Assembly: GCA_965198105.1 (NCBI GenBank)
Contig: OZ240240.1
Span: forward strand, 2,803,103 to 2,867,102
Direction: 5' to 3'
Source: Dehalococcoidia bacterium
GTDB taxonomy: Bacteria; Chloroflexota; Dehalococcoidia; Lucifugimonadales; CBDBON01
DNA: 64,000 nt
Part shown: positions 9,377-24,573 of the stretch, piece by piece
Layout of the letters: each line of letters opens with the position of its first letter
How positions within the stretch are numbered: position 1 is the stretch's first letter
Made by a program: the position numbers and the translations under genes
Notes under the pieces: model-generated
What the model was told of the DNA's origin: nothing
The model's input: only the letters and a program-made list of their open reading frames with translations
Databases searched by the model: none

Positions 9377-9402
9377 TTGACTCTTGCGACCCTGGGGTGT
9401 CT
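9377..9402 (+). promoter_or_regulatory. -35 half of the IS110 circle-junction promoter
   Basis: TTGACT (9377-9382) + 17 nt + TCTAAT, the last formed only when 9402 is joined to 7837. Confidence 0.7.
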
Positions 9403-10402
9403 ACCCCGCAGAGACGACCGAGGCGTTCTGCGACGGTCACGTCTCGGCCTTCTCGTTCCTGGGCGGCGTGCCCCGGAGCATCGTCTACGACAACACGAGA
9501 CTGGCCAGGATCCTGGGAGACGGTCGAAGGAAGCGTACCCGCGTCTTCTCGGAGCTGGTATCCCACTACCTGTTCGAGGACCGATTCGGCCGTCCAGGGA
9601 AGGGCAACGACAAGGGCAAGGTCGAGGGGCTGGTGGGATACGCACGCCGGAACTTCCTGGTGCCCATACCGTCGTTCGCGAGCTTCGATGCTCTCAACGC
9701 ATATCTGGAGGAGAAGTGCCTGGAGCGTCTGGGGAGACGGTTGCGTGGGCACGATGAGACGATAGGCCGTCGTATGGAGCGTGACCTGGAGGCCCTGCTG
9801 CCTCTCCCGGCCACACCCTACGACGCCAGCGACAAGCATGTGAGCCGCGTCAGCTCCCTGTCGCTGGTGCGGTACCGGACCAACGACTACTCGGTGCCCG
9901 TGGCCTACGGACACATGGAGGTGGTGGTGCGAGGCTACGTGGGAGAGGTGGTGATCAGCTGCGGGGCGGAGGTGATAGCCAGGCATCCGCGGTCCTACGG
10001 ACGCGACGACTTCGTCTTCGACCCCATCCACTACCTGCCGCTGCTGGAGCGCAAGACGGGAGCCCTTGACCAGGCCGCACCGCTGGCCGGGTGGGAGTTG
10101 CCGGAGGAGTTCGGGGTGCTGAGGAGGCTGCTGGAGTCCCGGATGGGCAGGCGCGGCAAGAGGGAGTTCGTCCAGGTGCTGCGTCTGATGGAGAGCTTCA
10201 GCAGGGAGGAGGTGTACGGGGGTGTGCGCGATGCCCTCAGGCTCGGCGCCGTGAGCTTCGACGCCATAAAGCACCTGGTGCTGTGCAGGATCGAGGGTAG
10301 ACCTCAGAGACTCGACCTACAGCTGTATCCCTATCTGCCGAAGGTCAGCGTGACGAAGACATCTGCCGGCGACTACATGGCGCTCATGTCGGGGAGCAGG
10401 CG

Positions 10403-11173
10403 GTGAGCGAGAGGTCGACGGTGCTGCTGGAGCACCACCTGAAGGAGCTGAAGCTGCCGACCTTCCTGAGGGAGTACGGCAAGGTGGCCGGACAGTGCGC
10501 CGCCGAGGACGTCGACCATCCGGGCTACCTGCTGAGGCTGGCTGAGCTCGAGCTGATAGACCGCCATCACCGCATGGTGGACCGCAGGATCAAGGCGGCG
10601 CGCTTCCCCGCAGTCAAGAGCCTCGACACCTTCGACTTCCTGGCCATGCCGTCGGTGAACAAGCATCTGGTCATGCAGCTGGCGCGCTGCGAGTACGTCG
10701 ACCGTCGTGAGAACGTCATCGCCGTCGGCAACAGCGGGACCGGCAAGACCCACGTGGCCCTCGGCCTGGGGCTCGCCGCCTGCCAGAGGGGGCTGCCGGT
10801 CGGCTTCACCACCGCCGCCTCCCTGGTGCATGAGCTGATCGAGGCCAGGGACGAGCGGCGTCTGCTCAACCTCCAGAAGAGGCTTGCCCGGCTCAAGCTG
10901 CTGATCATCGACGAGCTGGGCTTCGTCCCGCTCTCCAAGACCGGGGCTGAGCTCCTCTTCGAGGTCTTCAGCCAGAGATACGAGAGAGGGTCCATCCTGG
11001 TCACCACCAACCTGCCGTTCGACGAGTGGACGGAGGTCTTCGGCTCGGAGAGGCTGACCGGCGCCCTGCTGGACCGGCTCACCCACCGCGTTCACATACT
11101 GGAGATGAACGGGGAGAGCTACCGCCTCAGGCAGAGCAGGACAGGTGCCGCGGTCCGCTCTGCCGACGCCTAG
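10403..11173 (+). CDS. istB: IS21 helper ATPase IstB
   Basis: GNSGTGKTH, LLIIDELG, TTNLPF, LLDRLTH motifs. Confidence 0.95.
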   Translation: MSERSTVLLEHHLKELKLPTFLREYGKVAGQCAAEDVDHPGYLLRLAELELIDRHHRMVDRRIKAARFPAVKSLDTFDFLAMPSVNKHLVMQLARCEYVDRRENVIAVGNSGTGKTHVALGLGLAACQRGLPVGFTTAASLVHELIEARDERRLLNLQKRLARLKLLIIDELGFVPLSKTGAELLFEVFSQRYERGSILVTTNLPFDEWTEVFGSERLTGALLDRLTHRVHILEMNGESYRLRQSRTGAAVRSADA

Positions 11174-11329
11174 GCCGCAACGCTCCGCTCCCACTTACGG
11201 CTCCTGCGACACCCATAGACGGGTGACATCTATGCTGCCCAGTTGGGGAGGACAGAATCGCTGAACACCTATGCCCGACTGGTACGCTTTTGCTCCGCCC
11301 CGTGGCTTAATATCTCGCCGCCATTGACA

Positions 11330-12229
11330 GCCTGACAGTTGTACGCTTGCAGGAAGTCCTTTCCTCCAGGTGCGGGGATGATGCGCGACTCGGCATCGGT
11401 GAAGTTACGCTGGGCCTTGTCGCCGGGCACCCCCGGGTGCTTACCACCTTCGGCCTCGGCCTGTTCGGCAGCCGCCTGCGCCTCGGCTTCCAGCGCCGCC
11501 ATGGCTTCCCGTATCTTCTCCAACCGACCCTCTCGAAAGGCCAACTCCTCAGCCAACTCATCTCCACGCTTGTCTTTGCCGTACCGCCGGTCTTCCTCAT
11601 CATCCGCTGCCTGGGCCTGTCGCAACAACTCCGCTACCTCCGCCGCCAACTGCGCTGCCTTCTCCTTCATCCGTTGGTAACTCATCGCCTTATGCTTCGA
11701 TGCGTTGGCCTTGACCTTCGTGCCGTCCAGCGCCACGTGCCCCAGCTTCACCAGCCCCGCCTGCTGGCACAACGCCAGTACCTGTACGAACAGGCCCGAC
11801 AGCGCATCCACATTATTCTTGCGAAAGTCGGAGATGGTCCGGAAGTCCGGTGTGTTGTTCGCCGCCAACACCCTGAAGGCGATGTCCTCGTGGAGACGCT
11901 GGGCGATGCGGCGTGAGGACGCCACCCCCACGCAGTAGCCGTAGAGCAACACCTTGACCATCATCCGTGGATGATACGGCGGCCCGCCACGCCGTTCCCG
12001 CTCGTAGCGAGCGGTGACCTCCGACATGTCCAACTGGTCCACCACGTCGGATATGAAGTAGGCCAGATGGTCGTCGGGCAGCCACTCCTGCAACGCCGCT
12101 GGCAACAGCAACTGCTGGTCGGGCTCGTAGGGAAGGTAGGTCTTGCTCATCAACGACTCCCCGCTACTGGACTGGGCCCATCATACCCCCAACACTCACC
12201 AACCGTGTTTCTCGGACAGGCTGCTAGCG
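11330..12229 (-). mobile_element. IS1182-family element, 3'-truncated by the IS21 right end
   Basis: DQQLLLP...WLP..HLA, GGPPYHPRMM, PDFRTISDFR, VALDGTK..ANAS motifs; end CTAGCAGCCTGTCCGAGAAAC. Confidence 0.85.
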
Positions 12230-12450
12230 TGCAACGTCAAGCGGATGGTCGGGGCACGACTGATCGAGATGGACGAGACGTTGGCCCGACCGGCTGCCCT
12301 GACCACTGCTCCCTGCGCTGCATGAGCCTGCGGGTGACGCTGCCAACCCGCTAATCCCTACCAGGACGGGGTAGGGCGCACCACAACGACCTCATCGGCC
12401 ACTACACAAGCCCCAACCGGAATATCCAACCCACGCACACCTAACCGCCT

Positions 12451-14226
12451 TCACTCCCCAGTACCAATCCGAAAGCCCCTTGTTACGAGGGAATCAACTC
12501 TTGGATCCTGACTCGAAGGTTCGCGGAGACGGTCGATCAACACCGATAGGAAAGCCGCGATCTGATCGGTTGTACATTTGTTGACCACCCGTCGAAGTGC
12601 TTGGCCGACAATCTTGTCTTCGTACCCATGCCGTTCTAGATGGTCAATCATGATTTCTAGGTCTGCCCCAGGCTTTGCCGATCCAGATCTGCTCTTCGAT
12701 GAGGTCGGGGAAGTCAGCCGAGCGTTTCCCGCAATCGATGCATTATCGGAAACTCCTTTGGGACCGACTGCGGAGTGCAAAGGTGGATGAGGAGAATGAA
12801 TCCGCGTGAGACCTCTATCTTCTTCAACAACCTTTGGAAGTCTGCTGCGCCGCTTGATGAGCAGAGTTTGTCCTATCCCTAGCTTTGTCCACTGCCAGCT
12901 GAACGCCCCTTGCGACGCTGGCATTGGCTCACCTTGTGCCTCAACTGGACCAAAGCCGCGTACGTATAGCCCCGTGCCGTCCAAGTCGACCAATGTATCG
13001 GCACGTCCCTTGGGTGCGGACCAGTGGAGCAGATCTGGGTAACGATGACCGGGAGGCTTCCCTCCGCAAGCAATCTCGGCCAACCGACTTGCCTCAGATC
13101 GGAATAGCTCCCCATCAAGAACTTCAACTGGCGGATCCTCTTCAGCAACGACTCCAAGAATGGCGCCAGCCATCGTTGCAATCGTGTCTGTGTCAGTGCC
13201 AATCGCATTCGCGGCGACGCTCATCGCTCGTTCGGGTTCCGTTTCACACCAAATCAGCCCCATCGCCGCGATGGCCGTCAGCGTGCCATCGCCACGCCTT
13301 GCTTGGTCGCGCATCCTAAGACGGTCTACGACAGCAATGTAACTGCCGGTGCCGTCTGGGCTCGATGCATCGGCAGCCACTTGGATAGCCTCCCGGCACT
13401 CTTCTATCGCTTGCGCCCAACCCACATCAAAGGAGCCCGTCTCCCGTTCAAGCGTTGAACGCCAGTAGTTCCCAACCTCGACATCGGCCCGGATGAGATC
13501 CGGGACACCGGAAGCGACATCGGCAGCAGCGATCATTTCGTCGGGAGACGGATATTGGCCTTCAGCCATCGTGTGCGCCAACGCAAGGGCGTGGAGGATA
13601 GCTCCCAGCAGGCCTTTGGGGTGAGAGTGTGTGCAGATAGAGTTCTGGATCACATCCGGGAGAAAGGTAATTGGGTCGGATGGATCAGCAGCTGCCCATA
13701 CGTGAGGCTGGATTCGCATCGCGGCTCCATTCCCCCCAGAGTCCGTCCAGCCCTTGAATGTATTGGCGAACCACTGAACTTGTCGTCTAGCTAGATTGGT
13801 AGCCGCGGCGCTTGTGCCCCTACCTGCCCCAAGCGCATAGCTCAACCAAACGGGAAGCTCCACCTTGGCAAACGATTCCACGTCGAAGCCATGTGGTCCA
13901 ATGGCTCGGCCCGTCGCGAGACGCAGTTGTGAGTCGTCGGAATAGCACCCCCTTGGGAGTGCTACGGTGACACCTGCGCGGCCGCCAATACGACGCTCCC
14001 ATTCCACCGGCCTCTCTAGTGGGGCATTAGCCGTCCGCCTCTTGAGACCCGTTTCGTCAGTCAACTCACTAATCCAGCCAAGTGCGTCTCCATATGCAGA
14101 CCAGAGAGCTGAACGTCGGACGATTCCGGCGCGCTCAGCGGCAGCTGTTTGGGAGCGCCTTGACGAGTGAGGGCCAACGCCGGAGTGTAGTAAGTCGGCG
14201 TCGTTGAACAGAGGTAGTTTGGTCAT
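12451..14226 (-). CDS. ADP-ribosylglycohydrolase (ARH/DraG family) with ~190-aa C-terminal extension
   Basis: AYGDALG, YSDDSQL, GNGAAMR, THSHP and GTDTDTIATMAGAILG motifs; ATGA overlap with the upstream gene. Confidence 0.9.
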   Translation of the reverse strand: MTKLPLFNDADLLHSGVGPHSSRRSQTAAAERAGIVRRSALWSAYGDALGWISELTDETGLKRRTANAPLERPVEWERRIGGRAGVTVALPRGCYSDDSQLRLATGRAIGPHGFDVESFAKVELPVWLSYALGAGRGTSAAATNLARRQVQWFANTFKGWTDSGGNGAAMRIQPHVWAAADPSDPITFLPDVIQNSICTHSHPKGLLGAILHALALAHTMAEGQYPSPDEMIAAADVASGVPDLIRADVEVGNYWRSTLERETGSFDVGWAQAIEECREAIQVAADASSPDGTGSYIAVVDRLRMRDQARRGDGTLTAIAAMGLIWCETEPERAMSVAANAIGTDTDTIATMAGAILGVVAEEDPPVEVLDGELFRSEASRLAEIACGGKPPGHRYPDLLHWSAPKGRADTLVDLDGTGLYVRGFGPVEAQGEPMPASQGAFSWQWTKLGIGQTLLIKRRSRLPKVVEEDRGLTRIHSPHPPLHSAVGPKGVSDNASIAGNARLTSPTSSKSRSGSAKPGADLEIMIDHLERHGYEDKIVGQALRRVVNKCTTDQIAAFLSVLIDRLREPSSQDPRVDSLVTRGFRIGTGE

Positions 14227-14912
14227 TCAAAGGCCTCCGGTGCGTGCCGAACTGAGATTTCTCTGCCGAGTCCACTTAGGATTCCGTGTATCGTATCCAA
14301 TGACTCTTCCACCTGGACATCGATTCGCTGTAAGTGGACACACGGTAGCTCGCCCGGATACAGAACCTCCGCTTGTCGGTCAGTGGGCCACGCATCCAGC
14401 TTGTTTGTCCGATCATGCCATGTGCCGTAACGGCCTTTAATCCCATTTGAGAAGATTCGAGTGAAGCCGGCCAAACCTCCCGCTCGCATACAGGCGGGGT
14501 AGATATTGTTGGTCGTAGTGAAGACGACTCCAGGATGGGCAAGGATGCAGGGGTGGAATGAGAGAACCACCCAGGGATTGCCCTCAGCTGTGTGCCACCT
14601 CTCCGAGCGCTCGAACATCCAGTCATTGATTCGTTCAATCGACAGATTCACATAGTCCAGCCAGAGTCCGTCCTTGCGGATTGATGCGTTTGGCCTGTAG
14701 ACGTGCTCAAGGTACCTGTCCTGGGGCAGTCGTAAGCGGCTCTTGACTGCGTTTGAGGCCAAAATGCCAATTGCCCCACTGACGGTGGTGAAGTGAACCA
14801 CTTGGGTGATGCCGCGACACTCCGCGGCCATCGCGACGTCTGGGCAGGCTGGCAGAGACTTGATCTCCTCCTCCGTTCTGGCCGAAGCCTCAACGGGTTC
14901 TCCTCCATTCAC
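14223..14912 (-). CDS. DarT-like (DUF4433-type) ADP-ribosyltransferase
   Basis: VVHFT...GIL, DYVNLSI and C-terminal QAEVL with the putative catalytic Glu; size fits DarT-family toxins. Confidence 0.75.
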   Translation of the reverse strand: MNGGEPVEASARTEEEIKSLPACPDVAMAAECRGITQVVHFTTVSGAIGILASNAVKSRLRLPQDRYLEHVYRPNASIRKDGLWLDYVNLSIERINDWMFERSERWHTAEGNPWVVLSFHPCILAHPGVVFTTTNNIYPACMRAGGLAGFTRIFSNGIKGRYGTWHDRTNKLDAWPTDRQAEVLYPGELPCVHLQRIDVQVEESLDTIHGILSGLGREISVRHAPEAFE

Positions 14913-14916
14913 TGCT

Positions 14917-16320
14917 TCAAACCTCCACGAGACGATAGGTCTCAGGATCGATGTGACGGAACACGGTAGAGCGCTCCCCTAGCTTATACCCTAACGTAAC
15001 GGTCTTTCTGGCACGGCCAACTCCCATTGCTATCAGACGACGCAGTGAATCGAGTGTGCCGTCCCCATCTTCCTCGCCGTGCGGTGTTACCTCGTCACTC
15101 AGCCCTGGCATAAGCACATGATCGAATTCAAGACCCTTTGCCGAATGAATCGTGGACAGTGCGAGCAGTTCCGGACCCGTGGGCCACTCCCGCTCTTGGG
15201 TGAGTTCGCAATAGTCGATTCCCCGGCGCATCAGCACATCTCGCGTGTAATCGAACCACCCTCCACCCTTTGGATGGAGTATGGCAACGGTATCGCCGGT
15301 TGAGAGGTGGGAACGGACATGATCTAGCATGTAGCCGATCTGCGCACTGTACTTCCCCGCCACTACTTCGGGAAGTATACTGGACTCTTCGCAAGCCTCT
15401 TCATCGGGCGGCATACCATCCTCATCGGGTGGTAGGTCGCGGACAAGGGAAGAGGCGAGTCTCACGATCTCCGCTGTGTTGCGGTGGTTGCGTGCTAGTG
15501 TGAAGACCATCTCCGGTCTCATCGTGATGTCAAGCTCCCTCCATAGGAAACCCTGGGGGTAGATCCGTTGCGTGGTATCAATAATGAATGTCGTCGCATG
15601 GTCTTTGCTCAGATGTTTGAGAATAGCGCGCATCTGGTTGGCTGAGAAGTCTTGGGATTCGTCGACGATTACGATATCGTACTTTTGGCTGGGCGCCATG
15701 GAGGTTTTAAGGGCGACGTCGTTCCAGTCCACCAGTCCTCTTTCTGACTTCCTCTCTTCATACGGACGAATCACCTCCGTTAAGAGTCGCCTGCGCAGTC
15801 GTCGTGGAACCGCCGGTGCCCTCCCGCGTCCAGACCTCGTTGCTTCCAAGTACTCCTCTCGTTGGTCCGGCGGGAATCTTCCGAGCGCATAAGTGACCTC
15901 GCCGACAAAGTAGTCGTGATCTTCAGCAGCGACACCCATTCCTGAAAGGAGGGAGCGTATCCACCGATCTCTGCGATCCTCCAGGATGTTCTGGTGTCCA
16001 ACGAGACTCAGTGCCCACCGGCCAAAGGTCTCGACAGTGAGGACGAGGTCATCTTCAGGGTTGATCTGTTCTTCCGCAAGCTGGTTGATGTAGCCTCGCA
16101 GCGTCCGGTTGAAGGTCAACACGAGTACGCGCACAGGATCGACCAGATCTAACCTCATCCGCCGATTTCTTCGCGAACCGCACAACTGACGGAGACGAAA
16201 CAGCGCGGAAGTAGTCTTGCCGCTACCGGCAGCACCTCGAATTAGCCGGAACCCCGGACCGTCATCCTCTAGGATCGACAGCTGCTCAGGTGAGGGTACG
16301 ACATCCTGCAACGTGCGCAT
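14917..16320 (-). CDS. Compact UvrD-like SF1 helicase
   Basis: GAAGSGKT, IVIVDESQDF, LARNHRNT, STIHSAKGLEFD and GRAR motifs. Confidence 0.9.
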   Translation of the reverse strand: MRTLQDVVPSPEQLSILEDDGPGFRLIRGAAGSGKTTSALFRLRQLCGSRRNRRMRLDLVDPVRVLVLTFNRTLRGYINQLAEEQINPEDDLVLTVETFGRWALSLVGHQNILEDRRDRWIRSLLSGMGVAAEDHDYFVGEVTYALGRFPPDQREEYLEATRSGRGRAPAVPRRLRRRLLTEVIRPYEERKSERGLVDWNDVALKTSMAPSQKYDIVIVDESQDFSANQMRAILKHLSKDHATTFIIDTTQRIYPQGFLWRELDITMRPEMVFTLARNHRNTAEIVRLASSLVRDLPPDEDGMPPDEEACEESSILPEVVAGKYSAQIGYMLDHVRSHLSTGDTVAILHPKGGGWFDYTRDVLMRRGIDYCELTQEREWPTGPELLALSTIHSAKGLEFDHVLMPGLSDEVTPHGEEDGDGTLDSLRRLIAMGVGRARKTVTLGYKLGERSTVFRHIDPETYRLVEV

Positions 16321-16378
16321 CCCAAACCTCCGTACAGGCTACGAAGTGCTAATGGCTATCTGCCAAAGCTTACTCTAG

Positions 16379-16406
16379 ATTCTAGTGTCCTCCAACAGAG
16401 TGTCAA
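16379..16406 (-). promoter_or_regulatory. Sigma70-type promoter for the helicase-DarT-ARH operon
   Basis: TTGACA-N16-TAGAAT on the minus strand, ~60 bp upstream of the ATG at 16320. Confidence 0.65.
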
Positions 16407-16862
16407 CAGCGGACGCCCTGCGAATACTGCCAAACAACGAGCGTCTGCGATTTTCCCTCAAAGAGCCCAGGGTCGGAGGCCGCAAGCCTCAGCCCGCATG
16501 TACCCCCTACATAGGCTGCGAAGCCGGGATTGCATGACAATGCCGCAGCGTCACCCCACTGGCAATTGGGCTGCCCGCCGTGTCAGGTCCTCGTCTCAGC
16601 ATGGCCACTGGCAGCAGGGTGACACCGTGGAGGGAGGCTCATGAGAGGCACCAAGCCGCCGCCGGTGGCTCCTGCTAATTCGTTGCCGGAGGGTTTCACC
16701 GCGCCGCTTGTTCTCGCGATGGCGCAGAGCCGATAATGGAGGCAGGGCCACCTTGAGCGTCCGCTTTCGAGGCGCGGAACGCCCTCGACAGAATCGACGA
16801 GCCCCCGGTCCCTAGTAGGCCGGAGGCTCGTGAGGCTAGCCGGAGGTCGTTTACCGGACTCC

Positions 16863-18497
16863 TTAAATGAGAACCTCCAAGCGAAAAGTTCGCAAATCGG
16901 TACGCCTTGGCCCACCATTTTTGACGGTAGACAGAACTGAGCTGTTTAGCGCCATGTCCTCGGCGTTCCCACCGGATATCCGGCTGTCCTCTGGCATCGG
17001 AATCGTGTAGCGCATGAGGGCGTTGCCGGGCACCACCACGATCTCCTTGACGAAGGTCTCGATGAAACCCCTGCGCTCGGTCAGCTCGCTCGTCTTCAGG
17101 AACTCTCTCATGTCCTGGGCGTAGGCTGCGATGGTGTCCACGTCGTCCAGGGCGGCCCTGCGCTGCGAGAGGATGGCCCTGGCGTCCCGCGCCAAGTCCT
17201 CCAGTCGCTCCTGCCGGTCCCTATGCTCCCTGATGCGGGCTGAAGCGTCGGCCATGTCGATGTCGTCGGCAGTCTCTATGAAGTGCCAAATGCGCCCCAG
17301 CTTCCGCTTCACCTCTTCGAGCTCATCCTCGATGGTCTCCAGCCTCTCACGCTGCTCGGCGGCCACGCCGTCCATCTGCTCGTCCACGACCTTCACGAGG
17401 GCGCGGATGTTGCCGTCGGTGAGGACGTTGGTGCGAATCTTGCCGACGACCATCTCCTCAAAGCGACGAGCGTTGAGCCTGGGAGTCTCGCAGGCGTCCT
17501 TGCCGTGCTTCATGATGGACTGGCAGACGTAGTAGGAGAACTGTCCGCTCTTGGCGTCCTGACCGCTGAGCGCTCGGTTGCACGCCTTGCACTTGACCAG
17601 CCCGCTGAGCAGGTAGGTGCTCCCCACCCTTCGAGGGTGAACGACCTTGGGAGCTCGGGTTTGCATCAGCCTCATGACGCGCCGGAACTTGGTCTTGGAG
17701 ACGATGGCGGCGAACGCCTTCTCCACCCGGACCGGGTCGTCCTTGCTCTTACCCGCAACGCCCCACACCAGGGTGCCCGTGTAGACCTCGTTGCGGAGTA
17801 TGCAGTGGACGGTGTTCTTGGACCAGCGCTTGCCCGCAGGGCTGGCTATGCCCTCGCCATTGAGGGTCTTGGAGATTTGCAGCATACCCGTACCGGCCTC
17901 GGCCATGTCGAAGATGCGCTTGACGACATCGGAGGCATCGGGGTCGGGTTCGAGGATGGGGCGCTTCTTGGCGCCGTCCTGGACCATCACCCTGTTGTAG
18001 CCGTAGGGGGTCCTGCTGGCGACCCAGAAGCCGCGAGAGGCGGCCTCCCGCATACCGCGGGTCACCTCCTGGGCCAGATTCTCCGAGTAGAACTCATCGA
18101 CGCTCTCGATGATGCCCTCCAGCAGCTTGCCGGTGGGGGTGTCGTCGGCCTGTTCGGTGATGGAGACCACCCGGACGCCCTTGCGCCGGAGCATTGACTT
18201 GAAGGCGACGGCGTGCTCCCGCTTGCGGGTGAAGCGGGAGAATTTCCAGACCAATATCTCACGGAAGGGGGCATTGGTTTGGCTGGCGGCGTCGATCATC
18301 TTGCGGAACTCGGGCCGGTCGGCGATGCGTCCGCTCTCCGCCTCGTCCACGTACTCGCGGGCCACCATGTAGCCGTTCTTGCTGGCATAATCTCTGAGCG
18401 CCCGCATCTGCGCTGCCACGGACAGGTCCACGTCCTGGCGGTCGCTGGACACCCTGGCGTAGAGGGCAGCCGGTGTGTAGCCGGTGATCTGGTTCAT
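16863..18497 (-). CDS. Large serine recombinase (integrase type)
   Basis: ALYARVSS, DEAESG...DRPEF, SRFTR, recombinase domain PYGY, Zn-ribbon C..C...YVC..C and coiled coil; AAGGAGG RBS before MNQ. Confidence 0.95.
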   Translation of the reverse strand: MNQITGYTPAALYARVSSDRQDVDLSVAAQMRALRDYASKNGYMVAREYVDEAESGRIADRPEFRKMIDAASQTNAPFREILVWKFSRFTRKREHAVAFKSMLRRKGVRVVSITEQADDTPTGKLLEGIIESVDEFYSENLAQEVTRGMREAASRGFWVASRTPYGYNRVMVQDGAKKRPILEPDPDASDVVKRIFDMAEAGTGMLQISKTLNGEGIASPAGKRWSKNTVHCILRNEVYTGTLVWGVAGKSKDDPVRVEKAFAAIVSKTKFRRVMRLMQTRAPKVVHPRRVGSTYLLSGLVKCKACNRALSGQDAKSGQFSYYVCQSIMKHGKDACETPRLNARRFEEMVVGKIRTNVLTDGNIRALVKVVDEQMDGVAAEQRERLETIEDELEEVKRKLGRIWHFIETADDIDMADASARIREHRDRQERLEDLARDARAILSQRRAALDDVDTIAAYAQDMREFLKTSELTERRGFIETFVKEIVVVPGNALMRYTIPMPEDSRISGGNAEDMALNSSVLSTVKNGGPRRTDLRTFRLEVLI

Positions 18498-18514
18498 CGT
18501 TGCGTCCTCCTTGG

Positions 18515-18712
18515 TCATTCCTGTTCTCTCCTGCGGGCATTCGCCCGTTGGCGGCGCTGCCGCCGCAGCCACTCCTGCTCGTCCATATAGAAGCGGATTG
18601 CCTCTCGCAGGAACTCGCTCATGGTGCGGTCTTCCTCTTGAATGAACTGCCTTACCTGTTCGTCCATCTCAGGGGGCAGCGACAACGTAATGGTTCGTCT
18701 CTTCCGCGGCAT
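18515..18712 (-). CDS. CopG/ribbon-helix-helix regulator
   Basis: MPRKRRTITLSLPPEM...MSEFLREAIRFY; directly upstream of the recombinase. Confidence 0.75.
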   Translation of the reverse strand: MPRKRRTITLSLPPEMDEQVRQFIQEEDRTMSEFLREAIRFYMDEQEWLRRQRRQRANARRREQE

Positions 18713-18863
18713 CTCTTCCTTGCCTTCATGGTAACACCAGGTCTTACCCTTATCATGGACGTTCCAGCCCGTCGTTGTCAAGGGCCGGGCTTCTGTGAGA
18801 GGGGCTGTAAATCGGGTAAAATGGGGCCCGCAGACGTTGCGATGGAGGGGTGTAAACGGTGTC

Positions 18864-18910
18864 GACGCTCACCCCCGCCTCGCCGGTACATTATTACTCC
18901 GCCCTTTACA
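18864..18910 (-). repeat. Isolated IS21 left end; perfect 47-bp inverted copy of 7224-7270
   Basis: GACGCTCACCCCCGCCTCGCCGGTACATTATTACTCCGCCCTTTACA. Confidence 0.9.
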
Positions 18911-19102
18911 GAGGGGACTCTTCCGAGAGAACTCTCGAGATTCGATTGGTTGAAGCGGGCGACATATAGCCGGTCATTTCGGGACCCCGAGCGGGCGGCT
19001 AGGCCAACTAGCGACCGACCCTTGAGCGGGACGTCGAAGTTGCCGGGTATGGCTGCCAGTGTTAGCATCTCGAAACACCCACAGAGAACCAGGAGCACCA
19101 CG

Positions 19103-19216
19103 ATGTCCAGCCATGTTCCGAGCACGTCCGGCTATGCTCCAGCGCCCAACGGCATCCAGGACTCGCTGGAGCGCGACTGGTGGCGCGTCGACTTCAGGCC
19201 ATCCGGGAGGACCTAG
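19103..19216 (+). CDS. 37-aa small peptide B (MSSHVPSTSGYAPAPNGIQDSLERDWWRVDFRPSGRT)
   Basis: AGGAG at 19091-19095; 18/37 identical to peptide A, with six synonymous codon changes. Confidence 0.7.
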   Translation: MSSHVPSTSGYAPAPNGIQDSLERDWWRVDFRPSGRT

Positions 19217-19244
19217 CGATCTGGATTCACAGCGTGAGTCATCG

Positions 19245-19271
19245 AGACCTCCCTGACCCGGAGGTCTTTTT
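19245..19271 (+). terminator. Intrinsic terminator/attenuator after peptide B
   Basis: AGACCTCC-CTGACCC-GGAGGTCT perfect 8-bp stem plus T run. Confidence 0.75.
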
Positions 19272-19298
19272 GGTTGGTCAAGAAAGAGCCCGCATGAC

Positions 19299-20129
19299 AT
19301 GAACCCACCGAATCGTCTGCTCAGGACCGGGGCCACAGCCGCCGGGAGATTCCTTACGGTCGGACGTCCGATGGCCGGCGCCGTTCGGGCGCAGTTCAGC
19401 ATGTGCCGGCGGGACGTTGAGGACCTCCTGCCCGTCATCACCCAGCCGGTCTACTCCCTCATCCTCATGGCTGTCTTCGTATACGTCGGGCGTGAAGACC
19501 TGGCAGCCTACTCACTGGTCGCTCCTCTGCTCATGAGCGTCGGTGTGATGGCCGTCTTTGTCGCAAGCGAACTGATGACCCGTGAGCAGGACTCTCAGAC
19601 GCTGGAACTGACCGTGGCCTGTCCAACGCCGTTTCCGCTGGTCCTATTTTCACGGATTCTGGTCGTCACGTTCTTTTCGCTGATTGGGATCGCTGAGAGC
19701 TGGCTGATAGTCCGGTTGGTGTTCGGAGTGGGTGTGGCGATACACTATCCTTGGCTGTTCGTGGGAACGATGCTGCTGACCGCGCTCGCGTCGGCGGGCA
19801 CCGCCCTGATCACCGCGGCCCTTTTCTGCTTTGCGGAAGCGGCGCGGACTTTTCAGAACTCGATCACCTATCCGGTCCTTCTGTTGTCGGGCGCCCTAGT
19901 GCCAATCGCGGTGTTCCCAGACTGGCTGGAACCGCTGAGCCGCTTCGTCTTCCTCTACTGGTCGGCGAACCTGATCAGGGACTCCATGCAGCCGACGGCG
20001 ACCGAGGGAGTCCTGATTGGGCTGGGAGCGATCTCGGTCCTGGGCGTGGCTGCGGGACTGTTGGGAGGAGCGCTGACGGTCAGGATGCTCACCTACCTCA
20101 GACGGGAGGGGAGGCTCGGGGTTATATGA
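19299..20129 (+). CDS. ABC-2 type permease 1 (module B)
   Basis: Paralog of 2696-3526, same length. Confidence 0.85.
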   Translation: MNPPNRLLRTGATAAGRFLTVGRPMAGAVRAQFSMCRRDVEDLLPVITQPVYSLILMAVFVYVGREDLAAYSLVAPLLMSVGVMAVFVASELMTREQDSQTLELTVACPTPFPLVLFSRILVVTFFSLIGIAESWLIVRLVFGVGVAIHYPWLFVGTMLLTALASAGTALITAALFCFAEAARTFQNSITYPVLLLSGALVPIAVFPDWLEPLSRFVFLYWSANLIRDSMQPTATEGVLIGLGAISVLGVAAGLLGGALTVRMLTYLRREGRLGVI

Positions 20130-20914
20130 ACTCTCTCCGTCTTTTCAGCTACGGCCTGTTCGTAGGAACGAGGGACTTTGCAGGGGTTTGGAGCTGGAAG
20201 ACCTGGTTCGGTGGCTGGATGCTTCAGATGCTTGCCCAGGCGGTCTTCTTCTCCCTCTTCGCCAGACTGTTCGACTCACCTGAACAGGAGCGGTTCATGC
20301 TGATCGGCAATGCCGTCGCCGTAGGCGCGATAGCCGTAGCTTGGACGATCCCGTCCACCACGTGGGACCGACGAACCGGCACCTATCCGCTTCTCGTGAT
20401 CGCACCGTCCAGCATGCTGCCCGCGGTCATGGGCCGGACCTCCGTATGGTTGGCCTCCGGCGTGGCGACGACGCTCCTGACCTTCCTCGTCCTTGGAGTC
20501 CTGTTCGATCTCGCGCTGCCGTGGCCGGACACGCTGCTCATCGTTCCCCTGGTGGCCCTCACCTGCGCGAGCACATACTGCCTGTCGCTCTTCCTGGGCT
20601 CGCTCGTGATACGTCAGCCTCGCATCCGCAACCTGTTCCTCAACTTCCTGATCATAGTCGCGAGAGCCTTCTGCGGGGTCAGCGTCCCCGTCGCCTTCTG
20701 GCCCGACGCCGTACAGATCCTCGTCCAGTTCATGCCGATAACCCACGGCCTCCAAGCGATCCGGCTGGTGCTCGACGAGGCGTCCGTCGGTCCGATTCTC
20801 CAGACGGCCGGGCTCGAAGCTGCGGTGGGGCTGGGCTGGGTCGTTCTCGCCGCTTTGGTGATGGACCGGATGGCGAACGCCGGTCGCGCGGACGGCTCGA
20901 TAGAGTTCGTATGA
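20126..20914 (+). CDS. ABC-2 type permease 2 (module B)
   Basis: Paralog of 3523-4314; ATG at 20126 overlaps the upstream stop. Confidence 0.85.
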   Translation: MNSLRLFSYGLFVGTRDFAGVWSWKTWFGGWMLQMLAQAVFFSLFARLFDSPEQERFMLIGNAVAVGAIAVAWTIPSTTWDRRTGTYPLLVIAPSSMLPAVMGRTSVWLASGVATTLLTFLVLGVLFDLALPWPDTLLIVPLVALTCASTYCLSLFLGSLVIRQPRIRNLFLNFLIIVARAFCGVSVPVAFWPDAVQILVQFMPITHGLQAIRLVLDEASVGPILQTAGLEAAVGLGWVVLAALVMDRMANAGRADGSIEFV

Positions 20915-20939
20915 GCCGTAGAGCACGGAGAAGAGTACC

Positions 20940-21902
20940 GTGAACGCAATAAGGACCGTGGAGCTGCGCAGAATGTACAAGACCCGGGACGCCAACCCCG
21001 ACGTGGTCGCTCTCGACGGCGTCTCGATGGATATCGACGAGGGCGAGATACACGGCCTCCTGGGGCCGAACGGCGCCGGAAAGACCACGCTCGTGAAGGT
21101 GCTGTCCACCGTGCTCCTCCCGACGAGCGGGTCGGCCTCGGTGCTCGGACACGATGTCGTCCGGGAGACGAAGGCGGTCCGCCGGATCATCGGCGTCGTC
21201 CTGGGAGGAGACCGTGGGCTGTACTGGAGGCTGACCGGCCGCCAGAACCTGGAGTACTGGGCGGCGCTCTACAACGTCCCGGCCTCCACGGCCAGGCGAC
21301 GGGTGTCGGATCTGCTGGAAAGTGTGGGACTCTCCGACCGGGCCGACCACCTGGTCGAGGGCTACTCGCGGGGAATGAAGCAGCGCCTCCACCTGGCCAG
21401 GGGTCTGGTCGCGGACCCGCGTGTGATCTTTCTGGACGAGCCGACCGCCGGGATGGACCCGATAGCGTCACGGGAGTTCCGCCGACTGGTCGAGACTCTG
21501 CGGTCGGAGGGCCGGACGGTCCTTCTGACGACGCACGACATGGCGGAGGCCGAGGCGGTGTGCGATCGAGTCACGCTCATCGACCGCGGGAGGGTGCTTG
21601 CGGTCGAGACACCCCGGTCGCTGGGCGGACTGGTCGCCCGGTACGAGCGGATCGACTTCGAGGGAGGGCCCGACGGGCTGAGCGTGGTCCCCGGCGTAGC
21701 CTCGGTCGGACAGCTACCCGACGGCGGTTTCCGCGTGGAGCTCGACAGCGATGCTGCGACGCAGCGCGTGCTGAAGCTCCTCGTGGACGCCGGTGTCACA
21801 TCCATCACCACGTCTCGGCCGAGCCTGGAGGAGGTCTACATCCGCGTGATCGGAGACCGGGACTCCTCGTCCCCGGCGGATAGGGCCGTGGCCATCGACT
21901 GA
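20940..21902 (+). CDS. ABC transporter ATP-binding protein (module B)
   Basis: Walker A/B and signature motifs; paralog of 4341-5315. Confidence 0.95.
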   Translation: MNAIRTVELRRMYKTRDANPDVVALDGVSMDIDEGEIHGLLGPNGAGKTTLVKVLSTVLLPTSGSASVLGHDVVRETKAVRRIIGVVLGGDRGLYWRLTGRQNLEYWAALYNVPASTARRRVSDLLESVGLSDRADHLVEGYSRGMKQRLHLARGLVADPRVIFLDEPTAGMDPIASREFRRLVETLRSEGRTVLLTTHDMAEAEAVCDRVTLIDRGRVLAVETPRSLGGLVARYERIDFEGGPDGLSVVPGVASVGQLPDGGFRVELDSDAATQRVLKLLVDAGVTSITTSRPSLEEVYIRVIGDRDSSSPADRAVAID

Positions 21903-21918
21903 GAATAGGTGCTACTCA

Positions 21919-22698
21919 ATGGGGTACGCGTTCGGAGACACTTCGCTTGCCGCCAAGAGGCTCCGGTTACTTGCCGAGACCTTTGCCGAGCCGTCACGGG
22001 TGTTCATGCGCGAGGCCGCCGACAGGCATCTGGGGTTGGCGGCGGATCTCGGTTGCGGACCGGGCTACACAACGCATCTGTTGGCGGATACTCTGTTTCC
22101 TCGCCACACGGTTGGATTGGACAACTCTGAGAGTTTTGTGGGCCTCGCCCGGTCGACGGCGTCGGAGACGGTGTCGTTCCGCCTGCACGACATCAAGACG
22201 GAACCGTTCCCCTCAGCGCCGTACGACCTGCTCTTCAGCCGATTCGTACTGACTCATCTGCCCAGCCCTGAGACGATAGTCGACCTATGGGGCAGGCAAC
22301 TCAACGTGCACGGACTCCTGTTGTTGGAGGAGGTCGAGCATATCGACACCTCCAACTTTGTGTTCGACTCGTACATCAACATCCAGCAGGCAATGCTGGC
22401 GGAACAGGACAACATCCTCTACATAGGGTCCAGACTCGACCAGATCGCTGACTCGGTCTCATTGAAGCGACAGTTCAGCGAAGTGCGAACCGTGACCGTC
22501 CCTGCCGGCATGGCAGCTGTGCTGTTCCTTATGAATCTGGGTGTGTGGAGAGACAACGACTACGTCAGAGGCACCTGTAAACCGGCAGAGTTGGACGAGC
22601 TCGAAAGCGGGCTCGCTGCCATCGCTTCTGGGCATGGCGACACTGGTCCAGTAGAGTGGAGACTTCGCCACATCGTGATGGAACAGGTTTGTCACTAG
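21919..22698 (+). CDS. Class I SAM-dependent methyltransferase (module B)
   Basis: ADLGCGPG; paralog of 5332-6111. Confidence 0.9.
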   Translation: MGYAFGDTSLAAKRLRLLAETFAEPSRVFMREAADRHLGLAADLGCGPGYTTHLLADTLFPRHTVGLDNSESFVGLARSTASETVSFRLHDIKTEPFPSAPYDLLFSRFVLTHLPSPETIVDLWGRQLNVHGLLLLEEVEHIDTSNFVFDSYINIQQAMLAEQDNILYIGSRLDQIADSVSLKRQFSEVRTVTVPAGMAAVLFLMNLGVWRDNDYVRGTCKPAELDELESGLAAIASGHGDTGPVEWRLRHIVMEQVCH

Positions 22699-22764
22699 AT
22701 GCCGGTGATCCTGATTTCCACCGCCTTTTGCAACTTCCTCATAGCTAATCTGCACAGGCGTTAG

Positions 22765-24573
22765 TCATCCAGTGTCGACAGTGTATGACTGGAGGCGGGA
22801 GTAGAGGCCGCCGGACGCGACGAGCTTGTCGTGCGTGCCCTGCTCCACGATACTGCCCTGGTCCATGACGACTATGCGGTCGGCGTTTCGTACCGTCGAC
22901 AGCCGGTGGGCGATGACCAGCGCCGTCCGGTCCTTCAGCAGCTCTGCGAGGGCCTGCTGGATCAGCACCTCGGTGTAGGTGTCTATGTTTGCGGTGGCCT
23001 CGTCGAGGATCAGTATGCGGGGGTCTCCGGCGAGGGCTCGTGCGAAGCTGATCAGCTGACGCTGTCCGACGCTCAGGTTGGCTCCCCGTTCCAGAAGAGG
23101 GGTGTCGTAGCCCATTTCGAGTTCGAGGATGAACTGGTGGGCCCTGACCGCCCTTGCCGCGCGCTCGATCTGCTCGTCGGAGACCTCGGTGCGGTTGTAT
23201 CTGATGTTCTCCCTGACGGTTCCTGAGAATAGGTAAGGCTCCTGGAGGACGACGCCGACCTGTCGAGAGAGTGAGCGGAGCTCGACGTCCCGTATGTCGC
23301 GTCCGTCGAGAGTGATGCGCCCCTGGACGACGTCGTAGTATCTGAGCAGTAGCGAGACGAGTGTGGTCTTGCCGGCCCCAGTGGGCCCGACGATGGCGAT
23401 GGTCTCCCCGGCCTGGACCCGCAGGTCGATGTCGCGCAGGACGGGCGTTCCGGGCGAGTAGTGGAAGCTGACGTTCCCGAACCCCACATCTCCCCGCACG
23501 CGCGACAGCGAGGCGGCGTCGGGCCGGTCGGCGATGTCCGGCGGTATGTCCAGCAGCTCGAAGATGCGGTCTGCGGAGACCATGGCTTGCTGAAGCGTCT
23601 CGAACTGGCGGGTCAGCCGGCGTACCGGGTCGAAGAGACGCTCGATGTAGAGTGCGAAGGCGAGGACCACCCCGACCTCCAACGCGCCGCCCAACACCAT
23701 GTTCCCGCCGACAACGACGACTAGTGCGAGTCCAATCGCAGTGAGCATCTGCACTGACGGGTAGACCCCTATGCCGTAACGCGCCGCCCTGACGTTGGCG
23801 GACAGGACGGCCTGATTGGCATGGTCGAAGCGGCCGATGTTAGTCCGCTGGCGGTTAAGACTCTGGATCACCCGAATGCCCGAGACGTTTTCGTGGACCA
23901 GCGAGTTAACGTCGGCCAGCGTCTGCCGGGCGTGCTGGTAGGGCGCGCGTGAGAGCCTCTGCCACACGTTGAGGACCGGCAACAGGGCGAGGACAACGGC
24001 TAAGGAGACCAGCGCCAGCGGTAGATTGAGCAGAAGCATGGCCACCACCACCCCCGCGACCGCGACCGAGTTGGCGGCGCCTGCGACGAAGACGGTGATC
24101 AGCTCCCTGATCTGCTGGACGTCGTTCTGCACCCGTGACATTATCCTGCCCGCCCGGTTCTGATCGAAGAACCTCACCGAGAGCGACTGGATGTGGTCGA
24201 AGAGCTCCGCGCGCATGGCGTATAGCATCCGCTCGCCCACGGTGACCAGGATGCGCCGGTGCAGATAGCCGACGGCAAACTGTACGATCGCCACGGCCAG
24301 CAACAGCGCCGCCACTCTCGTCAGGCCCGGAAGGTCGCCCGAACCGGACGCTATGTAGCGGTCCACCGCCTCCTTGACAATCAGAGGTATGGCGACGACC
24401 GTACCGCTGTAGATGAGCATGGCGACAGTCGCCGCGGCAGCCTGTCCCCTGTACGGGCCGATGTATCCCAGCAGCCTGAGGAACAGCCGGCGATAGCGAA
24501 GTTCGCGCTGCTCCGAGTCGTTCAGCCTCATCGCGTTGCTGGCATCCTGGTGGGTGCTCTCACGAATGTTCAT
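22765..24573 (-). CDS. MdlB-type ABC exporter (TMD+NBD), subunit 2
   Basis: Six TM segments followed by GPTGAGKTT, LSVGQRQ, ILDEAT, IAHRLST. Confidence 0.95.
   Translation of the reverse strand: MNIRESTHQDASNAMRLNDSEQRELRYRRLFLRLLGYIGPYRGQAAAATVAMLIYSGTVVAIPLIVKEAVDRYIASGSGDLPGLTRVAALLLAVAIVQFAVGYLHRRILVTVGERMLYAMRAELFDHIQSLSVRFFDQNRAGRIMSRVQNDVQQIRELITVFVAGAANSVAVAGVVVAMLLLNLPLALVSLAVVLALLPVLNVWQRLSRAPYQHARQTLADVNSLVHENVSGIRVIQSLNRQRTNIGRFDHANQAVLSANVRAARYGIGVYPSVQMLTAIGLALVVVVGGNMVLGGALEVGVVLAFALYIERLFDPVRRLTRQFETLQQAMVSADRIFELLDIPPDIADRPDAASLSRVRGDVGFGNVSFHYSPGTPVLRDIDLRVQAGETIAIVGPTGAGKTTLVSLLLRYYDVVQGRITLDGRDIRDVELRSLSRQVGVVLQEPYLFSGTVRENIRYNRTEVSDEQIERAARAVRAHQFILELEMGYDTPLLERGANLSVGQRQLISFARALAGDPRILILDEATANIDTYTEVLIQQALAELLKDRTALVIAHRLSTVRNADRIVVMDQGSIVEQGTHDKLVASGGLYSRLQSYTVDTG

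Follow-up and report, generated by a model that had tools for sequence, protein, structure and literature searches.

Organization of the locus

We analyzed a stretch of 64,000 nucleotides of a Dehalococcoidia bacterium genome (contig OZ240240.1, positions 2,803,103 to 2,867,102; hereafter the window), and focused our attention on three consecutive genes on its minus strand. These are darH (14917-16320), coding for a helicase of 467 aa, darT (14223-14912, GTG start), coding for a putative toxin of 229 aa, and darG3 (12451-14226), coding for a hydrolase of 591 aa with an ADP-ribosylhydrolase (ARH) fold. The names are those of the components of DarHTG, an anti-phage system of Escherichia coli to which, as detailed below, the trio very probably belongs. 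Direct reading of the junctions showed that the TGA stop of darH is separated from the darT GTG by a 4-nt gap (agca), and that darT and darG3 have GAATGACC in common, an ATGA overlap; an internal GGAGG stands a few bases upstream of both junctions. A Shine-Dalgarno GGAGG, also read directly (16327..16331, minus strand), precedes the ATG of darH by 6 nt. Approximately 58 nt before that ATG, a sigma-70-type promoter-like site is found (16379..16406, minus strand), composed of a -35 TTGACA (16406-16401), a 16-nt spacer and a -10 TAGAAT (16384-16379), and matching the consensus at 11 of 12 positions. No second site of this kind is present within 12000-17000. As one observed site against 1.6 expected in shuffled sequences is not above chance, it stays a well-placed consensus match, for which quality and position, and not the count, are the notable properties of this candidate promoter.

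The GC content is 54-60% over positions 12500-16500, against 61-70% in the flanks. The neighboring gene at 16863-18572 was found by Pfam to carry Resolvase, Recombinase and Zn_ribbon_recom domains, and hence codes for a large serine recombinase. Overall, the tight coupling of the three genes, the TTGACA/TAGAAT site, the lower GC and the serine integrase beside the trio, all described in a first-pass annotation of this DNA, were recovered in our analysis.

Relationship of the trio to the DarHTG system

The DarHTG system (Liu-DS3) was mined from E. coli genomes and published in Nucleic Acids Research in April 2026 (PMC13069673). It is composed of DarH, a UvrD-like protein devoid of the 2B domain, DarT, and DarG3, which resembles archaeal and eukaryotic ADP-ribosylglycohydrolases and is unlike both known DarG types. 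From its native promoter, the system shields E. coli against phages T4, T5, T7 and SSL_2009a; mutants in the DarT active site or in the DarH ATP-binding site lose defence, while a DarG3 mutant was not obtainable (PMC13069673). As the main text of that work gives neither an accession nor the numbers of the mutated residues, the E. coli locus was located independently, starting from a trio on a Salmonella plasmid. A trio whose annotation and protein sizes fit the published description (WP_000699006, WP_000151475 and WP_001087212) was found in 21 of the 5,426 complete E. coli genomes, on the chromosome, in an island of integrase and insertion sequence (IS) genes, adjoining a large P-loop NTPase. 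A sensitive blastn search of the same genomes revealed no other E. coli variant, and the chromosomal trio was 99.8-100% identical in DNA to that of the Salmonella plasmid.

Each protein of the window has a counterpart in this trio: DarH shows full-length identity of 40% to its E. coli/Salmonella counterpart (E=4e-123), DarT is 41% identical over its full length (E=9e-48), and DarG3 is 37% identical over 559 aa, a beta-domain and a helical bundle of its C-terminal part included (E=7e-113). Moreover, the enterobacterial members (L083 and L084) were recovered by the same family survey as the window's relatives. The window also agrees with DarHTG in its three components and their order, and in having a DarH that lacks 2B and retains its ATP-binding residues, an intact ADP-ribosyltransferase (ART) site in DarT, and an ARH-fold DarG3 with the same C-terminal modules. 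On this comparison, the trio is very probably a toxin-antitoxin/abortive-infection cassette of the DarHTG type, distantly orthologous (37-41%) to the E. coli system. It differs from the latter in that its nearest relatives come from metagenome-assembled genomes (MAGs) of Chloroflexota/Dehalococcoidia, another phylum-level background, in a DarT approximately 30 residues longer at the N-terminus than the enterobacterial proteins, and in a darG3 3' end remodelled by an IS.

Some observations weigh against this assignment. The equation of Liu-DS3 with the E. coli locus compared here relies on the published description and on the lack of another E. coli variant; moreover, an identity of 37-41% leaves scope for functional divergence. 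In addition, PADLOC v2 has no ARH model, and its DarT model matches weakly (E=5e-6). Next to the weak DarT match, the PADLOC check suggested in the first-pass annotation returned a partial match of DarH to GajB (E=6e-20), and no DarG3 model match at all. With no DarG3 model and a weak DarT match, automated annotation with PADLOC-DB v2.0.0 (2023) would miss the system.

The first-pass annotation had read the trio as a candidate undescribed system with a third type of DarT-antitoxin pairing. The pairing itself holds, with an ARH-fold hydrolase in place of the macrodomain or NADAR and an obligatorily linked superfamily 1 (SF1) helicase, but the claim of novelty fails, since this composition had been named DarHTG in April 2026 (PMC13069673), a system to which the window contributes no more than a divergent member. 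In the literature we found no pairing of 'DUF4433' with 'ADP-ribosylglycohydrolase', and ARH is unmentioned in the NADAR specificity paper. The terms 'DarT3/DarG3' in a preprint on Vibrio cholerae DarTG turned out to be superscript citation numbers, and not protein names. Gene neighborhoods of DarT were reportedly first analyzed by De Souza and Aravind in 2012.

DarH, a helicase without the 2B domain

Pfam assigned to DarH the UvrD N- and C-terminal domains (PF00580 and PF13361), in agreement with the UvrD-like helicase initially proposed. The motor motifs are Walker A GAAGSGKT (K35), Walker B VDESQD (D220), SAKGLEFD and RRL; K35 and D220 are kept in 64/64 relatives, and the two other motifs are likewise conserved. 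When aligned with UvrD from Deinococcus radiodurans, DarH residues 296-352 stand opposite UvrD residues 307-532, so that about 170 residues, and with them the 2B domain, are absent. Judging from this alignment, DarH is a UvrD-like SF1 helicase/ATPase without 2B and with the 1A, 1B and 2A regions retained. The NCBI pipeline names the protein '3'-5' exonuclease' in E. coli NZ_CP021722 (L004) and in two further loci (L002 and L003), a name which is probably wrong.

The best PADLOC match to DarH, GajB, is confined to the motor motifs. Gabija does resemble the trio in placing an SF1 UvrD-like ATPase within a defence operon, but DarH is shorter (467 aa), has no 2B domain and is partnered with an ART toxin instead of the GajA nuclease. 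As the GajB-model matches are only partial and no GajA-like gene occurs in the operon, identity with Gabija was rejected.

DarT, a putative toxin closest to DarT1

The 229-aa protein matched Pfam PF14487 with 77.9 bits (cutoff 22.5, E=1e-21). An AlphaFold2 (AF2) model built with 48 homologs reached a mean predicted local distance difference test score (pLDDT) of 82 and a predicted template modeling score (pTM) of 0.84. In a Foldseek search with this model, all eight significant matches in the PDB were DarT structures, which bears out the ART fold on which the first-pass proposal had been made to depend. The top match was DarT1 from E. coli C7 (8BAQ; template modeling score (TM) 0.69/0.76, root-mean-square deviation 3.2 A), followed by DarT2 proteins from Thermus, M. 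tuberculosis and Thermosipho (TM ~0.6-0.7). At the sequence level, the DarT family profile reached among PDB sequences DarT1 only (E=1.8e-11), with no DarT2 at E<=1.

In DarT1, residues R52, M71, N104 and E152 are essential for activity, and N104 coordinates the base, at a place occupied by His119 in the thymidine-specific DarT2 (Schuller et al. 2023, PMC11543638). The window protein retains all four, as R79, M99, N135 and E182, respectively; moreover, DarT1 H17, F18, D54 and F72 align with its H40, F41, D81 and F100. Within the family, conservation amounts to 71/71 relatives for N135 and E182, to 70/71 for H40 and to 68/71 for R79. Since an Asn stands at the base-coordinating position, as in guanine-specific DarT1, guanine appears a likelier target than thymine, and the window protein can be regarded as DarT1-like, with guanine as the best guess for its target base. 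Some features of the site speak against carrying the specificity over: M99 varies among M, F, Y and L in the wider family, the guanine-contacting K74 and Y75 of DarT1 align with R102 and W106, with an insertion of 3 residues intervening, and R102 is not conserved. In loci L002, L003 and L004, the NCBI pipeline annotates the protein as 'ssDNA thymidine ADP-ribosyltransferase family protein'; this name implies a specificity for thymidine that finds no support in the active site.

DarTG1 from E. coli C7 (8BAQ, PMC11543638) accordingly supplies the closest relative of the window DarT, by sequence and by structure, and has the same anti-phage toxin-antitoxin logic. It differs in having a NADAR antitoxin, where the window has an ARH-fold one, and in lacking the obligatory helicase; the two toxins are only 18% identical in the structural alignment, and the K74/Y75 loop differs. 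Identity with DarTG1 was rejected on the absence of a NADAR. DarTG2 (Thermus, M. tuberculosis and enteropathogenic E. coli) shares the DarT fold and an antitoxin made of a hydrolase domain and a non-catalytic C-terminal part, and was rejected as well, as the trio has no macrodomain, and as its DarT carries Asn135 and not His and reaches only 19 bits with the NCBIfam toxin_DarT equivalog, for which the cutoff is 150. In none of the three window proteins did Pfam reveal a macrodomain or a NADAR domain, as the first-pass annotation had stated for both known antitoxin types.

DarG3, a putative ARH-fold antitoxin with additional modules

Residues 43-359 of DarG3 matched Pfam PF03747 (ADP_ribosyl_GH) with 101 bits (cutoff 26.2, E=1e-28), and the AF2 model (pLDDT 80) has four parts, namely an ARH domain, a beta-domain, a linker and a helix bundle. 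The ARH catalytic domain (13069..14163, minus strand; residues 22-386) bears the metal- and ADP-ribose-binding motifs GDALG (46-50), SDDSQ (96-100, within SDDSQLRL), GGNGAAMRI (164-172) and GTDTDT (343-348, within GTDTDTIA), which are invariant; D47, D97, D98, D345 and D347 are kept in 73/73 relatives. The full set of ARH/DraG motifs read from the sequence at the outset is therefore intact. Foldseek placed the domain next to archaeal MJ1187 (TM 0.79, normalised to target), vertebrate ARH3 and DraG, and its structural neighbors include the immunity ARHs of ART toxins 8ZA7 and 6DRE. These belong to pairs which, together with DraT-DraG, also combine an ADP-ribosyltransferase with a reversing ARH-fold enzyme (Tre1-Tri1 for 6DRE, and a Listeria ART-ARH pair for 8ZA7). 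Their ARTs, however, modify proteins (FtsZ, dinitrogenase reductase), are not of the DarT fold and have no helicase beside them, and DarG3 carries C-terminal domains in addition.

The first of these is a small all-beta domain of five strands (12832..13014, minus strand; residues ~405-465, AF2 pLDDT 80-91). It is conserved throughout the family, residues Y396, P397, D398, W402, P405, W444, W446, G452, Q453 and K458 being invariant in the alignment A2, and we regard the domain as a candidate module for binding DarT, DarH or single-stranded DNA (ssDNA). A poorly conserved linker, predicted to be disordered (12673..12807, minus strand; residues 474-518, pLDDT <50), connects it to a C-terminal three-helix bundle (12523..12672, minus strand; residues 519-568) with AF2 helices at 519-532, 537-550 and 553-568 (pLDDT ~80). 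The helix-bundle region aligns with the C-terminus of E. coli DarG3. The C-terminal domain of DarG binds DarT; by analogy, the architecture of DarG3 suggests that the toxin is controlled at a second level as well, through binding.

The 3' end of darG3 differs from that of its nearest relatives. The closest homologs (98-82% identical; P0121-P0123, P0125 and P0126) are about 713 aa long and run 135 residues further, whereas homology of the window gene to P0121 (713 aa) stops at codon 578, position 12493, and is followed by a non-homologous tail of 13 codons and a stop (12451..12492, minus strand). Next to the breakpoint lies a DUF772 (IS5-like) transposase gene (11269-12153), itself truncated by an IS21 element (istA/istB, 9384-11173) that adjoins an IS110-family transposase. 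The missing 135-residue piece was found nowhere else in the window, and neither this extension nor the C-terminal modules of DarG3 had a Pfam match at E<=1. Loss of the extension to an IS insertion could affect regulation, which is a further point against the assignment to DarHTG. On these grounds it might be argued that the window copy is a decaying remnant, inactivated or deregulated by the IS. This seems improbable, as the three open reading frames (ORFs) are open and full-length by the family norm (~467, 229 and 579 aa) and every catalytic residue is intact. Moreover, the extension is clade-specific: most family members, the validated E. coli protein included, lack it, and are about 560-580 aa long, ending where the window homology ends. 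With its antitoxin dead, an intact toxin would kill the cell; DarG3 must therefore still be able to neutralise DarT. Given that most relatives end at the same point and that darT is intact, we consider this copy most likely still functional.

Conservation and spread of the cassette

To delimit the family, one genome per GTDB species was scanned with patterns from the DarT alignment, which yielded 80 loci; as these patterns were built from this DarT subfamily, the linkage described here covers the subfamily and not all DarT. An ARH homolog lies directly downstream of darT in 80/80 loci, every one of them without a NADAR partner, and a helicase homolog lies upstream on the same strand in 79/80. 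A recurrence in 79-80 of 80 independent genomes is more than chance, and answers the question of co-conservation raised by the first-pass annotation. The exceptions amount to one helicase loss, two insertions of ~1 kb and a small number of helicase genes that are split. Junctions between the trio genes are mostly 4-nt overlaps, and the three proteins diverge in a correlated manner, with a Spearman rho of 0.62-0.72 in a comparison of 1,326 pairs of loci. When all flanking ORFs were clustered, no fourth conserved gene emerged, the best cluster being present in 6/81 loci. The serine integrase adjoins the trio in only 3/81 loci; hence it is incidental and outside the module.

The hosts belong to at least eight phyla, and comprise Chloroflexota/Dehalococcoidia, Acidobacteriota, Alpha- and Gammaproteobacteria, Actinomycetota, Spirochaetia, Planctomycetota, Desulfobacterota, Binatia and Saccharimonadales. 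On plasmids, tblastn recovered trios of identical gene order and protein sizes in Salmonella and Cereibacter, and a degraded version in Streptomyces, while no phage-borne copy was detected among 50,697 phage records. In the relative with the nearest long contig (L085, 1-16690; DarT 86% identical), the trio sits inside a defence island, with a CBASS operon (SMODS and TIR-SAVED) on one side and an SNF2 helicase with an Eco57I-type methylase on the other. The strict three-gene linkage, the correlated divergence and the lack of a fourth conserved gene argue that the trio is a self-contained three-gene cassette, which moves horizontally between unrelated genomic contexts. Altogether, it bears the hallmarks of a mobile defence module.

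Some further observations were made on individual loci. An ATP-grasp (MvdD-like) gene pair is located directly upstream of the trio in L085, on the side of the CBASS operon, and recurs in L086 and L087. Among the loci of the survey, the closest relatives (L005-L041; DarT 48-72% identical) were recovered from long-read MAGs that belong to widely different phyla, including Chloroflexota, Acidobacteriota, Paracoccaceae, Spirochaetia, Binatia and 'Ca. Poriferisodalis', among others. As the record names of these MAGs are uniformly styled, recent horizontal spread in one habitat type is suggested, possibly that of host-associated marine communities. One Spirochaetia MAG contig (OZ253572.1) harbors two complete trios (L017 and L033) ~180 kb apart, with DarT proteins 63% and 62% identical to that of the window.

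This distribution also bears on what the cassette is for. The trio could act mainly as an addiction module, stabilising its mobile element by post-segregational killing, with a less stable DarG3 as the antidote. Its toxin-antitoxin architecture with translational coupling, its presence on plasmids, in islands rich in IS and integrase genes and beside a serine integrase, and the failure to obtain a DarG3 mutant (PMC13069673) would all fit. Nevertheless, we hold it to be decidedly improbable as the main role: under its native promoter, the E. coli ortholog confers protection against four phages (PMC13069673), the required ATP-dependent helicase has no obvious part in simple addiction, and most copies are chromosomal, in unrelated contexts and with no conserved mobility gene. 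Besides, defence and addiction roles can coexist.

Endogenous control of growth or replication by reversible DNA ADP-ribosylation, instead of immunity, would have a precedent in DarTG of M. tuberculosis, which governs replication and gene expression (PMC12170906), and the host of the window is an uncultured, IS-rich bacterium. A role of this kind is highly improbable, given the patchy and horizontally transferred occurrence of the trio (21/5,426 E. coli genomes; 60-72% identity across unrelated phyla), its GC, which is atypical for the host, and its defence-island neighbors. The view of the trio as a DarHTG-type defence cassette is accordingly the one that we follow below.

Mobile DNA surrounding the cassette

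The window is rich in IS elements, partly nested (7230-11173, 11269-12490, 51168-53826 and 59822-62601). An IS110-family element lies inside the IS21, which in turn truncates the IS5-like (DUF772) element next to darG3, and further inverted IS copies are present at 51-54 kb (98% identical) and at 60-62.6 kb (87-92% identical). A perfect 47-nt inverted repeat, TGTAAAGGGCGGAGTAATAATGTACCGGCGAGGCGGGGGTGAGCGTC, at 7224-7270 and 18864-18910, bounds a block of 11.7 kb that includes the trio. We considered whether the block 7224-18910 could be a transposed unit and rejected it: there is no target-site duplication around it, so transposition as a unit is not supported, and the repeat is a solo end of an IS21-type element, which is also found at 61740-62353.

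The whole block with IS elements, DarHTG and integrase is in turn flanked by two copies of a 4.9-kb segment in direct orientation (2303-7223 and 18910-23797, 87% identity), encoding two ABC-2 permeases, a DrrA-like ATPase, an S-adenosylmethionine-dependent methyltransferase and part of an ATP-binding cassette exporter. This repeat represents either an old tandem duplication, at whose junction mobile DNA inserted, or a product of recombination. Directly upstream of the serine integrase, a gene for an 88-aa ribbon-helix-helix (CopG-like) protein (18515-18781, minus strand) overlaps the integrase start by 58 nt, and is possibly an excisionase or a regulator of the integrase. Towards its right end, the window contains two almost perfect copies of a 382-nt sequence, at 63057-63438 and 63501-63882 (99.7% identity, starts 444 nt apart). 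Neither tRNA genes nor Rfam families at gathering threshold were found in the 64-kb window.

Proposed mode of action and implications

The target of DarT, the chemistry of reversal and the role of the helicase are not addressed in the E. coli study (PMC13069673), and it is on these points that the residual interest of the system lies. Across the family, all three catalytic centers are conserved, the genes are co-inherited and relatives occur in defence islands. We propose that, in the resting state, the three proteins would be co-translated from the single promoter. DarT would act as an NAD+-dependent ADP-ribosyltransferase on a base in ssDNA, most likely guanine rather than thymine if its DarT1-like site is a guide. 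In the uninfected cell, the di-metal ARH site of DarG3 would hydrolyse the ADP-ribose adduct and keep DarT harmless, and DarG3 would probably also bind DarT or DarH through its beta-domain and helical C-terminus. Upon infection, DarH would act positively, either by sensing phage DNA or replication intermediates, or by unwinding DNA and thereby providing DarT with ssDNA; a positive role is indicated because the ATPase mutant loses defence and does not turn toxic. Phage and host DNA would then be ADP-ribosylated, and replication would halt.

A real tension in this scheme concerns the removal of ADP-ribose from a base by DarG3. To our knowledge, macrodomains (on thymine) and NADARs (on guanine and cytosine) are so far the only proteins observed to carry out such removal from nucleobases. 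Results with other ARH-fold enzymes stand against the step: ARH1, ARH3 and SCO5809 failed on guanosine-ADP-ribose, and ARH3 had trace activity on the thymidine-ADP-ribose nucleoside and none on thymidine-ADP-ribose within DNA (PMC11833690, PMC12879935). As the ARH-fold enzymes tested fail on base-linked ADP-ribose, the chemistry assumed for DarG3 is without precedent, which leaves a choice between a new activity of DarG3 and another substrate of this DarT.

In the latter case, DarT would modify no DNA base, and its substrate would be of an ARH-reversible kind, such as ADP-ribosyl-arginine or -serine in proteins, or ADP-ribose on phosphate ends of DNA or RNA, with the helicase as the target or the delivery vehicle. 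Besides the failures just cited, this agrees with the fact that characterised ARHs all act on protein-linked ADP-ribose, O-acetyl-ADP-ribose or phosphate-end ADP-ribose, and with 8ZA7 and 6DRE, neighbors of the ARH domain, conferring immunity to protein-targeting ART toxins. We judge it unlikely, as the DarT model superposes best on DarT1 and DarT2, which modify DNA bases, and as the residues for base ADP-ribosylation are kept, among them the Asn that coordinates the base and the Arg that abstracts the proton. Moreover, we know of no protein-targeting member of the DarT family.

Modification of a base by DarT, followed by its reversal by DarG3, is compatible with the DarT1-like site, the conserved ARH di-metal site and the extra beta-domain, which nevertheless are no proof of it. 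The full proposal, that DarT of DarHTG modifies guanine or another non-thymine base in ssDNA, that DarG3 reverses this modification, and that DarH is the sensor or the substrate-generating motor that licenses the toxin, is put forward tentatively, as a possibility with rather less than an even chance of holding in all its parts.

For the family as a whole, the three genes are strictly linked across at least eight phyla and have no accessory gene, and the cassette is far wider-spread and more cohesive than a study of E. coli only can show. If the proposed chemistry is true, DarG3 would provide the first demonstration that an ARH-fold enzyme can free a nucleobase of ADP-ribose.

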